Source of the DNA: a plasmid
Length of the DNA stretch: 64,000 nt
Sequence record: NZ_KX443406.1
Strand: one strand, 5' to 3'
Part shown: positions 31,712 to 34,357 of the stretch, piece by piece
How the letters are laid out: the number at the start of each line of letters is the position of its first letter
Position numbering within the stretch: position 1 is the first letter of the stretch
Program-made: the position numbers and the translations under genes
The notes under the pieces: model-generated
What the model saw: only the letters and a program-made list of their open reading frames with translations
Databases searched by the model: none
What the model was told of the DNA's origin: nothing

Positions 31712-32332
31712 ATGACAACACAGACTCTCGCGGCGAGCATCGAGTCGGCAGTACGCCGCCGCCCGGGAATCGCCAGCATGGGTCTCGCACGGGTGCTTGG
31801 CGTCTCGCGTGACGGTCGTCGTCTGCGGCGACTCGCCCAGGACGAAGACGCGCAGGTCGCCGTCGACGGCGCCGGACGATGGTGGCCGACAAAGAACCTC
31901 AGCGACCTACGGCCTGGCGAACGCATCCCCAGATTTCTTGGCGATTTCGAGGACCGGGCCACCTATGAGTGGGTGACGATCCTCAGCGTCGCAGCGTGCG
32001 ACGGGATCTTCCCCGAATTCGTCGACGTCGTGTTCATCAACGATGATGGGACGCAGGATAGATGGGACGGTCTGCGGTGGAGTGAGAAGCATCCCGTTAG
32101 TACCTCTCACTGGCGCGGCAGATCGTCCTCGGTGCCCGACGGTCTCGCCTACCTGCAGCGCTGCCTCAGTCGCTTTCGAGGTCCAGCACCAGGACGGTGT
32201 CAGGAAGCGTCCTGTATAGAAATTCACCGGAGCGGGGAGGGAAACTCTGATTGTCCTCGAAGTAGTCGCGTGAGGCGAAGAAGCGCCAGGCATCTTGCGT
32301 TTCCCGGGCGTAATCGGGGAGTTCGAGAATAA
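31712..32332 (+). CDS. Hypothetical protein (possible wHTH); the 3' end overlaps a convergent gene
   Basis: Good third-position GC until about 32160; the tail may be read-through. Confidence 0.3.
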   Translation: MTTQTLAASIESAVRRRPGIASMGLARVLGVSRDGRRLRRLAQDEDAQVAVDGAGRWWPTKNLSDLRPGERIPRFLGDFEDRATYEWVTILSVAACDGIFPEFVDVVFINDDGTQDRWDGLRWSEKHPVSTSHWRGRSSSVPDGLAYLQRCLSRFRGPAPGRCQEASCIEIHRSGEGNSDCPRSSRVRRRSARHLAFPGRNRGVRE

Positions 32333-33131
32333 AGTCTGTCAACAGGTGATTTCGCAGAGCATCCTGCCACATTTCTGTGCTGTCGCCAAAAATCCCCTCC
32401 CGAGTCGCCTTTTCTGCGACCAACGTCGCCGAATGCATATGCGTGAAAGTTTCTCGGGGTGAGAGTTTCCCGATACCGAGTTCTGCGGTGTGGATGTCCG
32501 ACATATTCTTGCACGCCAATGTGAAGAGCCGGGACCAAGGGAGTGACACTGGCATGTAGCGCGGGACATCCGCTCGTCGGGCCCACCGGGTCTTCTTCGA
32601 GTTGAAGTGCAGGTCGTGGACGGCATACGAAGACACCGCGGCGCAGCCCCAGAGTTCCTGGGCTAGCTTCCCGCATCTATCCTCGTGGTCCGATTTGAAC
32701 GATTCACTGAATCGGGTCTCGGGCCAACCATTGAAGAAGACGTGGAACGGGTAGGTAGCGTCGTCGTCCTGGCAGTCGGCAATCAGAGTTTGATACTGGA
32801 ACTCGTGCCCGGCATCGATGTCGCCGCGATGATCCAGCTGTTTGTACTTCTTTCCGTGAACTCGCTTGGCTTGAATCCGTAAACGAAACCACCCAAAGCT
32901 GCGCGACCCGATCCACCATTCCCAGTCCGCGCCCGTCGACTTCTCCTCATACTGGTTGAATCGCTTGACCGCGAGCTGAGGATGCTTTCGCATGAGAGTG
33001 AACAGAAGCTCATCGGTGATCGAGTCCTCACGAAATTTCAGGTTCGCGAGGTCGCCGATCTTTATTCGATCCCACGTTTCTGCGGACAAACGATCCATGT
33101 CTCGAATGAGCGAGAGGAGATTCAACGGCAT
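32166..33131 (-). CDS. Low-GC hypothetical protein with a possible PD-(D/E)xK-like nuclease core
   Basis: GC is markedly below the surroundings by eye. Candidate motif TGADWEWWIGS...FGWFRLRIQAKR (D...Q/ExK on alternating hydrophobic strands). Confidence 0.5.
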   Translation of the reverse strand: MPLNLLSLIRDMDRLSAETWDRIKIGDLANLKFREDSITDELLFTLMRKHPQLAVKRFNQYEEKSTGADWEWWIGSRSFGWFRLRIQAKRVHGKKYKQLDHRGDIDAGHEFQYQTLIADCQDDDATYPFHVFFNGWPETRFSESFKSDHEDRCGKLAQELWGCAAVSSYAVHDLHFNSKKTRWARRADVPRYMPVSLPWSRLFTLACKNMSDIHTAELGIGKLSPRETFTHMHSATLVAEKATREGIFGDSTEMWQDALRNHLLTDFILELPDYARETQDAWRFFASRDYFEDNQSFPPRSGEFLYRTLPDTVLVLDLESD

Positions 33132-33169
33132 CCGGTCACTATCGCAGATGCCACCCGCTTGATGATCGG

Positions 33170-33535
33170 TCAGTCGGTTTCGATGAGGAGTCGTTCGCGG
33201 TCGTACTGGACGGATCGCTCGATGGCCGCCCGCGCTGCATCCTCTGATCCCCAGACGTACGACAGGAACGCAGAGCTCAGGCTCCGACGTTCCGCCGCGC
33301 GCTCGTCACGCACCGTCGCGTACTCCATGTAGGGCCGGCGGGCGTTCTGGTTCACGGTTCGCTTGCTCATCCCGAGCAGCTTCGCTGTCTCGGACTGGCT
33401 GAGACCGCTCAGGAGAGCGTCCTTCACCAGGGCCGGCCCGACGACGTTGTCCTCGAGGAAACGTAGGTGCTCGACGAGGTGGCGGGCGTCGCGGCGGCGT
33501 TGGGCGAGGTCAACGCGGTCCGGTTGGTCTTCACT
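33170..33535 (-). CDS. Small HTH regulator, paralogue A (HTH + YVWGS...YDRERL domain)
   Basis: HTH ALLSGLSQSETAKLLGMSKRTVNQNARR; start MSEDQ chosen because the upstream extension is encoded by a palindromic operator. Confidence 0.5.
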   Translation of the reverse strand, partial: SEDQPDRVDLAQRRRDARHLVEHLRFLEDNVVGPALVKDALLSGLSQSETAKLLGMSKRTVNQNARRPYMEYATVRDERAAERRSLSSAFLSYVWGSEDAARAAIERSVQYDRERLLIETD

Positions 33536-33545
33536 CATGAACGCA

Positions 33546-33585
33546 GTATTGCGGTACCGCATGGGAACCGCAATACCTGAGCTGC
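33546..33585. promoter_or_regulatory. Palindromic operator GTATTGCGGT-N11-ACCGCAATAC
   Basis: Perfect 10-bp inverted repeat immediately upstream of paralogue A. Confidence 0.55.
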
Positions 33586-33587
33586 GT

Positions 33588-34061
33588 TCAGTGCTTTTTC
33601 CGTCCGGGTGTCGGAGGGTTCCGGGTGTCCGTCGGCGGGATGTTTTCGGCCTCGTGTTGCTCGTGCATCTGCTCGAGCCAGTCGGCGGGATGCGTGTCAG
33701 CAAAGTGGAAGGGGAGACGTTCGCGGTCGTACTTTTGGCAAACGGCGACGGCCTCGTCCGCTGCTTCCTTGGATCCCCAGACGTAGGTGAGAAAGTCGAT
33801 CATCAGTGGGACCTGGCGCTGGATGACGTCGTCGTCGCGGCCGCGGGGTGGTGTCGGATACCACGGGCGCCGAGCTAGTTCGTTGACGCGAGACTTGCTC
33901 ATCCCCAGGGCTTTCGCGATCTCCTTCTGGGAGTGGCCGCGGAGCAGCGCCGCCTTCACGGCTGTCTGATCGACGTGAGAGTTCCCGAGGTCGCGAAAAA
34001 TCGTCACGAGCTGCTGTGCGTCTGTGCGCCTGGCGGCCATGTTCGTCAGCGACAAGTCCAT
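33588..34061 (-). CDS. Small HTH regulator, paralogue B
   Basis: HTH ALLRGHSQKEIAKALGMSKSRVNELARR and a YVWGSKEAADEAVAVCQKYDRERL block shared with paralogue A. Confidence 0.5.
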   Translation of the reverse strand: MDLSLTNMAARRTDAQQLVTIFRDLGNSHVDQTAVKAALLRGHSQKEIAKALGMSKSRVNELARRPWYPTPPRGRDDDVIQRQVPLMIDFLTYVWGSKEAADEAVAVCQKYDRERLPFHFADTHPADWLEQMHEQHEAENIPPTDTRNPPTPGRKKH

Positions 34062-34100
34062 GCCATGAGTATTTCGGTACGTACTCAATACCGCAATACC
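34062..34100. promoter_or_regulatory. Second operator GGTATTGCGGT-N11-ACCGAAATACT (one mismatch)
   Basis: Same half-sites as 33546-33585. Confidence 0.45.
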
Positions 34101-34357
34101 TTTGTACCGTTGCGGGACCATGCGAAGTCGCCGTGGTGTCAACATCCCGCACGCGGTTTTGGCCGATCGATGGTCGGTCGCGGCCTACGTTCGGAAAACG
34201 GTCGTTTTCCGAACGCGGGCCAATCCGAACACCGCTGTCAGTTTCAGAACTCGACTGCACGGGCTCCTGGGAGAACAGCGTGTTGTGATGAGGTCTTCTG
34301 ATCCGCTTCTGTCAGAAGTGATCTGCACTATCGTCGGCGCATGCGCTGGGAGTACCG

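Follow-up and report, generated by a model that had tools for sequence, protein, structure and literature searches.

We analysed a 64,000-nucleotide (nt) stretch of DNA, here called the window, from sequence record NZ_KX443406.1. Its source is a pVAPB-type (pig-type) virulence plasmid of approximately 106 kb from Prescottella (Rhodococcus) equi. Our subject is a string of three genes on the minus strand that encodes, in this order, two helix-turn-helix (HTH) proteins, HTH-B and HTH-A, and a protein of 321 amino acids (aa) belonging to the DUF6615 family. The three genes lie where the vap pathogenicity island ends on its right side, and they adjoin a 26.9-kb transposon (Table 1). The gaps between them are tight: 49 nt separate HTH-B from HTH-A and 38 nt separate HTH-A from DUF6615. 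Plasmid pVAPB1593 matches window positions 23000-34235 at 99.9% identity and 61114-63932 at 100% identity, and there a serine recombinase gene, named invA (PMC5434932), lies beyond HTH-B in divergent orientation. In the public annotation (RefSeq, pVAPB1593 and pWY), the three genes carry no labels other than 'DUF6615 family protein' and 'hypothetical protein'.

An earlier note on this DNA had proposed that the three genes constitute a regulated toxin or defence cassette. The gene order that it gave was the one we found, but its start of HTH-A at 33535 had to be moved to the true ATG at 33538; the resulting 122 aa agree with the RefSeq call on pWY and with the lengths of the homologues (117-122 aa). 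The foreign composition ascribed to the DUF6615 gene was also seen relative to its immediate neighbours: its GC content is 55.7%, with 68.6% at third codon positions (GC3), against 63-69% GC and 78-85% GC3 next to it. The earlier note's comparison with everything around it goes too far, since the vap island (16-28 kb), with a GC content of 54-61%, is as low as the DUF6615 gene.

Table 1. Features of the three-gene string and of the adjoining DNA (positions in the window).
Feature	Position	Strand	Details
DUF6615 gene, 321 aa	32166-33131	minus	
Spacer between HTH-A stop and DUF6615 start, 38 nt	33132-33169	minus	no terminator-like site, no dyad
HTH-A, 122 aa	33170-33538	minus	ATG at 33538-33536
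Putative leaderless promoter of HTH-A	33545-33573	minus	-35-like TTGCGG 33573-33568, 17-nt spacer, -10-like AATACT 33550-33545
Putative operator A, dyad GTATTGCGGT-N11-ACCGCAATAC	33546-33576		0 mismatches; ends 7 nt before HTH-A ATG
HTH-B, 157 aa	33588-34061	minus	same coordinates annotated in pVAPB1593 and pWY
Promoter-like hexamers of operator B		minus	TTGCGG 34096-34091, AATACT 34073-34068
Putative operator B, same dyad	34069-34099		1 mismatch; ends 7 nt before HTH-B ATG
Near-perfect palindrome	34182-34221		13-bp core arms CGTTCGGAAAACG / CGTTTTCCGAACG, 2-nt spacer AC; upstream of invA in pVAPB1593
Target-site duplication ACCGC, left copy	34231-34235		from breakpoints versus pVAPB1593 and inverted repeats
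Tn5053/Tn7-like transposon, 26,878 bp	34236-61113		tniA 34358-36043, tniB end 36951, tniQ end 38177; Pfam Mu-transpos_C/rve, TniB, TniQ
Target-site duplication ACCGC, right copy	61114-61118		pVAPB backbone (invA side) restarts here

The 321-aa protein, which the earlier note could not place in a known family, matched Pfam DUF6615 (PF20320) with 56.1 bits against a gathering threshold of 23.8 (E = 5.4e-15; residues 32-135 aligned), and the same label was carried by 73 of the 77 homologues found. The family is large, with 3,034 clusters at 50% identity (E <= 1e-3; 2,095 at E <= 1e-10) from Actinomycetota, Cyanobacteria, Bacteroidota, Pseudomonadota, Acidobacteriota and archaea. Nearly all members are single-domain proteins of 260-340 aa without fusions, and the 321-aa protein is typical in this respect. 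Relatives were found 241 times in 185,579 genomes and 13 times in 2.9 million viral contigs. A viral origin was considered and rejected because of these mere 13 loci in viral contigs, and DUF6615 is not primarily a phage gene. A literature search for 'DUF6615' returned no paper.

An AlphaFold2 model of the protein had a predicted local distance difference test score (pLDDT) of 82.5 and a predicted template modelling score (pTM) of 0.83, with values above 90 in the core. Residues ~30-205 form a predicted PD-(D/E)xK nuclease-fold domain, and residues ~205-295 a variable helical C-terminal part. On the model, the core has the restriction-endonuclease-like succession alpha-beta-beta-beta-alpha-beta. 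Across 195 diverse members, G67, D69, Q87, K89 and Q112 are invariant, and E35, E63, A88 and E71 are nearly so. E35 sits on the first helix of the core, D69 where a strand begins, and Q87-A-K89 on the strand that follows; these are the usual catalytic places of PD-(D/E)xK enzymes. The PD-(D/E)xK-like core guessed at in the earlier note was thus supported by the modelled fold and the invariant residues, with the twist that a Gln replaces the acidic residue. Active enzymes with a QxK motif are known, TnsA being one. Judging from the model, the protein very probably has a nuclease fold.

When the model was searched against solved structures with Foldseek, Rep15 was the sole significant match, and the best enzymatic matches were the Holliday-junction resolvases RecU and Hjc. 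Rep15 itself has been described as Hjc-like (PMC9308819). Human Rep15 (a Rab15 effector, PDB 8A4A/8A4C) is a eukaryotic protein-binding protein with no reported nuclease activity; its identity to the 321-aa protein is ~10%, without a match at the sequence level, and homology between the two is not established. No Pfam or NCBIfam match to Hjc or RecU was obtained either, and a profile search of PDB sequences found no similarity to a solved structure. Compared to Hjc and RecU, the protein is longer (321 aa versus ~120-200 aa), carries Gln instead of Glu in the ExK motif, and has a W-rich GADWEWW motif and the helical C-terminal part. Moreover, DUF6615 proteins are solitary on mobile elements and not housekeeping proteins. 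The 321-aa protein is a member of DUF6615 with a PD-(D/E)xK superfamily fold; it belongs neither to the Hjc nor to the RecU family, and it matched no catalogued defence system.

To describe the surroundings of DUF6615 genes, we took the two nearest open reading frames (ORFs) on each side at 62 non-redundant loci, 225 ORFs in total, and compared them with Pfam and PADLOC. Many were of defence type. They encoded methylase, specificity and restriction subunits of type I restriction-modification (R-M) systems, ResIII helicases, AAA_21/AAA_15 ATPases (HEC-01A, AbiL, Gabija-like), AbiEii, HEPN_AbiV, Cas1, NYN and HNH proteins, and there were also MADS components, DrmD/Hma-type helicases and PD-T4-6 kinases. 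Individual look-ups of close homologues added a type I-C CRISPR-Cas locus, a RelE/CopG pair with an integrase, an Abi-like gene identified by eye (without a Pfam match on record) and an Xre-RES pair with a weak Abi_2 match. In one locus (L081), DUF6615 follows a gene for a HipA-like kinase. The earlier suspicion of a defence setting therefore has a counterpart in the family as a whole, as DUF6615 relatives occur repeatedly among R-M, Abi, toxin-antitoxin and CRISPR genes. This neighbour pattern is that of stand-alone defence genes, which is suggestive.

In a few loci, DUF6615 is embedded in an R-M system. In a Robiginitomaculum metagenome-assembled genome (L082:7303-14067), it is located between hsdS and an ORF of 1,094 aa that we took as hsdR, after an ORF of 506 aa taken as hsdM, and the genes are joined by 4-nt stop/start overlaps. 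Only hsdS was confirmed there (Pfam/PADLOC); hsdM and hsdR were assigned by size and position. In a second locus (L049:8472-10510), DUF6615 overlaps the end of an HsdR-like gene. PrrC sits between type I R-M genes in the prr locus, as DUF6615 does in the Robiginitomaculum locus. This resemblance to PrrC-type guests is one of position, as PrrC is an ABC-ATPase anticodon nuclease of unrelated sequence and fold. The P. equi plasmid does not show the embedded arrangement.

A nuclease of this fold might instead serve the mobile element that carries it, as a structure-specific DNA-processing enzyme in junction resolution, conjugation, integration or recombination. The structural likeness to RecU and Hjc would fit such a role, and relatives are often found beside integrases, serine recombinases and transposons; on the P. 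equi plasmid, too, the gene lies in a plasticity region near invA. However, DUF6615 has no fixed recombinase partner, the protein with its extra helical part is much larger than Hjc or RecU, and the R-M-embedded, Abi, toxin-antitoxin and CRISPR contexts fit immunity better. In addition, the gene is absent from plasmids with the same backbone, namely P. equi plas2 and the pVAPA plasmids; of the three-gene region, the latter share only 47 bp beside invA (34189-34235, 91.5% identity). A service to the element is therefore unlikely, and a defence nuclease remains our preferred reading of DUF6615.

It is slightly less probable still that the gene is a functionless passenger on this plasmid, or that the whole family represents a non-catalytic, Rep15-like binding scaffold. 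Besides the match to Rep15 and the Gln in the ExK motif, this idea draws on decayed copies in P. equi. In strain AcN21-7 (L007:8950-10700), an intact dyad, described below, precedes an HTH-A pseudogene that lacks a start codon and contains an in-frame stop; next come an insertion of 600 bp, which encodes a secreted protein, and a DUF6615 gene that has lost its last two-thirds by a deletion of ~1 kb. Ahead of this decayed copy, the last ~21 nt of the spacer 33132-33169 are conserved. On a pRErm46-like resistance-plasmid contig (L101:5950-6822), DUF6615 is cut at residue 51 by a transposon end (TGTCAGT...), and resolvase, TniA/TniB-like and resistance genes, but no HTH gene, are found nearby. 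Such copies indicate that DUF6615 is dispensable, mobile cargo in P. equi. On the other hand, the ORF is intact and identical in pVAPB1593 and KX443397 and 99.8% identical in pWY, and in 195 distant members D69, Q87, K89 and Q112 never vary and E35 and E63 hardly do, which speaks for an active site under conservation.

We next consider whether the three genes belong together. Using tblastn with HTH-A and HTH-B, a gene of the HTH family was found near DUF6615 only in P. equi (80 loci from the genome scan plus the look-up loci, in the fetched flanks). All-versus-all clustering of the ORFs within 4 kb of DUF6615 revealed no conserved neighbour; all that recurred, apart from antisense artefacts, was an integrase (5 loci) and a serine recombinase (4 loci). 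P. equi plas2, which has the same replicon, relaxase and mating-pair types, carries invA, HTH-B and HTH-A at 93% identity and lacks DUF6615: its homology to the window ends 7 nt after the HTH-A stop, where catabolic genes follow. Elsewhere, HTH homologues are followed by unrelated small genes and not by DUF6615, both in four loci that we compared (L087, L088, L090 and L091; one small protein is common to two of them, and nothing else) and, by annotation, in three further plasmid loci.

These data speak against the central proposal of the earlier note, a dedicated toxin or abortive-infection cassette in which the HTH proteins are the cognate repressors or antitoxins and are inherited together with DUF6615. 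The genes do share a strand with tight spacing, the only two operators of the plasmid lie ahead of this very string, and in AcN21-7 DUF6615 again follows HTH-A, so that the adjacency was inherited at least once. Yet both genes are decayed in that strain, the pRErm46-like copy lacks the HTH genes altogether, the adjacency is confined to P. equi, the 93% identical HTH pair of plas2 has no DUF6615, and no toxin-antitoxin or defence model matched. We rejected the cassette as a candidate when neither an HTH gene nor any other conserved neighbour was found outside P. equi in the fetched DUF6615 loci, and regard it as improbable. Conversely, on the comparative sequence evidence it appears highly likely that the HTH pair and DUF6615 do not form a dedicated cassette. 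The operon-like juxtaposition is accidental: two independent things have come to lie side by side at the edge of a plasticity region, a putative solitary nuclease and a pair of putative regulators.

HTH-A and HTH-B are true paralogues, as had been proposed in the earlier note (48% identity, E 4e-26). The model of HTH-A is all-helical, with five helices, a helix-turn-helix at residues ~45-67 that resembles those of sigma-70 region 4, LuxR and DeoR, and a C-terminal helical hairpin with the conserved sequence YVWGS...YDRERL. The HTH part was modelled with confidence and its matches are DNA-binding HTH domains, from which we infer that the proteins bind DNA. HTH-B has in addition a low-complexity C-terminal tail of 40 residues. 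Neither protein gave a significant family-level match in Pfam or NCBIfam. The Pfam models for LuxR and sigma-70 region 4 (GerE, Sigma70_r4 and Sigma70_r4_2) did not reach their gathering thresholds, and a weak match of HTH-B to KORA (E 9e-4) was under the cut-off. In PADLOC-DB v2.0.0, HTH-B had no match at E <= 1 and HTH-A only a weak, non-specific one to the C-terminus of a CARF protein. The HTH family is small (49 clusters, with named members in Rhodococcus, Prescottella, Dietzia and Cryobacterium) and is so far known from actinobacterial, mostly plasmid-borne contexts. On plasmid pA26BH1 of Cryobacterium (L100:3219-4351), the HTH gene has a serine recombinase gene as its immediate neighbour, and genes for a Mu-type transposase and an AAA ATPase are close by. 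This hints at a functional link of the HTH family to recombinases or res regions, echoing the neighbourhood of invA, HTH genes and transposon in P. equi.

Like the HTH family, the KorA/TrfB and BrxR/CapW regulators are small HTH proteins with a palindromic operator over their own promoter, encoded upstream of accessory genes. BrxR/CapW proteins consist of a winged HTH, a WYL and a WCX domain, whereas the HTH-A model has no beta-rich WYL or ligand-binding domain and no Pfam match. Particular to the HTH family are a fixed gap of 7 nt between the palindrome and a probable leaderless start, the tandem duplication and the absence of a fixed downstream gene. By these features, the HTH proteins would act like classical autorepressors, yet stand outside the KorA-like and the defence-regulator families.

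Each HTH gene is preceded by the palindromic dyad listed in Table 1, as stated in the earlier note, perfect for HTH-A and with one mismatch for HTH-B; the number of copies expected in shuffled sequences was 0.00, against 2 observed in the window. The same note had attributed the likeness between the translations of the two longer ORFs (GIAV..YRNT) to translation of the dyad, and this proved correct, as the dyad lies upstream of the real starts. No further dyad was found in the rest of the window or in bases 1-50,000 of pVAPB1593, and a wider regulon on the plasmid was rejected.

The dyad is not confined to this plasmid. It was present ahead of 12 of the 12 HTH-family genes examined, namely two in the window, two in plas2, one each in P. 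equi AcN21-7, Dietzia, Rhodococcus sp. 06-235-1A, R. opacus, Rhodococcus sp. WAY2 and Cryobacterium, and two on metagenomic contigs. Its family consensus is GTATTGCGGTAC-N7-GTACCGCAATAC (31 bp), from which the copy in Cryobacterium is more degenerate. The arms are conserved, and the spacer and the upstream flank vary. Between dyad and start codon there are 7 nt in 10 of the 11 intact genes, one of them after its start was re-assigned to GTG, and 8 nt in the remaining one; the twelfth gene, that of AcN21-7, is a pseudogene without a start codon at this position. With up to 2 mismatches allowed in each arm, the dyad occurred solely ahead of HTH-family genes in the window and in the 1.6 Mb of fetched loci.

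In the 12 arm pairs of the 12 sequences, not one compensatory change was found: variation was one-sided, 11 of 144 cells were unpaired and covariation was not above that of shuffles. This indicates that the base sequence and not the pairing is conserved, as expected for a site bound by protein rather than for an RNA hairpin. Although the arms of 10-12 bp could form a stable stem right before the start codon, and operator A directly follows the HTH-B stop, where a terminator might lie, this pair counting, the conserved arms around a variable loop and the lack of a T-tract after the stem on the coding strand led us to discard an effect of the dyad at the RNA level (5′ untranslated region hairpin, attenuator or terminator) as highly improbable. 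With the same sequence at the same position before all 12 genes, the palindromes are best read as operators and not as coding sequence, as the earlier note had it, and the comparison makes an operator with autoregulation very likely.

The dyad also appears to contain the promoter. A -35-like hexamer (TTGCGG) and a -10-like hexamer (AATACT) lie in its two arms, and the last T of the latter is located 6 nt before the A of the HTH-A ATG. In the 11 intact family genes, the hexamers and their 17-nt spacing are conserved: the left arm contributes TTGCGG, and the right arm plus one base (A/G/C)AT(A/G)CT, in which the A at position 2 and the T at position 6 are invariant. A Shine-Dalgarno sequence would find no space here. 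Such a hexamer-to-start geometry is that of actinobacterial leaderless transcripts. HTH-A and HTH-B are thus probably expressed from leaderless mRNAs.

From these results the following picture can be drawn. As the -35-like and -10-like hexamers of the proposed leaderless promoter lie inside the two arms of the 31-bp dyad, an HTH dimer bound to the dyad would cover both hexamers and block RNA polymerase, resulting in self-repression. Since the two operators are nearly identical, each HTH protein would probably repress its paralogue too, and heterodimers are likely. DUF6615 would be expressed by read-through from the two self-repressed HTH promoters, as suggested by its position 38 nt downstream on the same strand, without a terminator in between and without a dyad of its own; a consensus scan found no terminator on the minus strand. 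The level of DUF6615 would then be low at steady state and rise in a burst when the repressor is absent, for example just after entry of the plasmid into a new cell. The protein itself would be a horizontally acquired, solitary, metal-dependent nuclease, Hjc/RecU-like and with an E-D-QxK active site, that acts alone against foreign DNA, either phage or competing mobile elements.

Several observations weigh against this picture. The acidic position of the (D/E)xK motif is an invariant Gln (Q87) in the 195 sequences, and the closest solved structure belongs to a non-enzymatic human Rab effector; together these leave room for a non-catalytic role. A PADLOC scan matched the 321-aa protein to no known or candidate defence model (PADLOC-DB v2.0.0, no match at E <= 1), and PHROG and NCBIfam gave no DUF6615 match either. 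The evidence from defence neighbours is a raw count without a background control, and genes of ordinary metabolism are also numerous among the neighbours. Of the three further copies of DUF6615 in P. equi, two have decayed or been cut short. Co-transcription is deduced solely from the spacing and the absent terminator, and an E. coli-type consensus scan called no promoter at the hexamers, although such a scan is uninformative for actinobacterial leaderless promoters.

Overall, a self-repressed HTH pair and an independent, solitary DUF6615 defence nuclease that is read through from it is the best explanation of the locus, and one in which we have moderate confidence. Co-transcription of DUF6615 with the HTH genes, considered by itself, seems reasonably likely. 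The defence role of DUF6615 is a tentative assignment, for which the conserved putative active site and the defence-rich neighbourhoods make the protein a plausible candidate as a stand-alone defence nuclease. A more far-reaching version, which we consider doubtful, would see in DUF6615 a widespread and so far unrecognised group of single-gene immunity nucleases with an E-D-QxK-Q site and an Hjc/Rep15-like fold; on pVAPB plasmids, such a nuclease would have come to lie behind a self-repressed leaderless HTH tandem and would be released in a burst on entry as a weapon against resident or incoming DNA.

Public records already contained the plasmid, the transposon and the ORFs. New is the functional reading, which comprises the predicted QxK nuclease fold, its defence-island context and a family-wide putative operator doubling as a leaderless promoter. 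The result is a well-supported annotation upgrade together with a candidate, and falls short of demonstrating a new mechanism. Should DUF6615 proteins turn out to be active nucleases restricting phages or plasmids, they would represent a compact one-gene defence system and give a function to a domain of unknown function (DUF) present in thousands of genomes. Lying on the border of the vap island, a gene of this kind might then shape which phages or competing plasmids P. equi tolerates. The family is a good candidate for defence screens. The HTH family offers a clean test case for autoregulation and leaderless expression in actinobacteria, and its dyad, a neat regulatory element, might be developed into a compact regulated promoter for genetic work in Rhodococcus.

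The earlier note had placed a transposon end beside the three genes, and breakpoints and inverted repeats located this left end at 34236. The transposon has terminal inverted repeats of ~27 bp, starting TGTCAGTTTCAGA, and is not present in pVAPB1593, where its insertion point lies between HTH-B and invA. An insertion of ~27 kb in the 106-kb plasmids pVAPB1413 and pVAPB1533 has already been reported (PMC5434932). The transposon in the window matches this reported insertion. It resembles the Tn5053/Tn402 family in its TniA (rve plus Mu-transposase C-terminal domain), TniB and TniQ, its 5-bp target duplication, its TGT... terminal repeats and its serine-recombinase neighbour. Tn5053-family elements are known as 'res-hunters', and insertion beside a resolvase gene fits this behaviour. 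The transposon is context and not part of the finding.

The near-perfect palindrome at 34182-34221 ends 14 bp from the insertion point, and the transposon now parts it from invA. It may be the recombinase's own site, either a res-type site or an operator. To the left of the three genes are vapB (29039-29632), a chorismate mutase gene and a CopG-type gene. The ~1.2 kb between the latter and DUF6615 (31000-32165) carries no RefSeq gene, and no clear third-position GC signal was seen there in any frame; its ORFs, including one of 274 aa on the plus strand, had no Pfam match, and the region probably consists of decayed remnants. A 120-bp piece of it (31719-31838) is kept in the decayed copy of AcN21-7. 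The duplicated segments at 22881-23741 and 26320-27061 correspond to the two copies of vapK in the vapB pathogenicity island; they are 99.9% identical to pVAPB1593 and a known feature of pVAPB plasmids.

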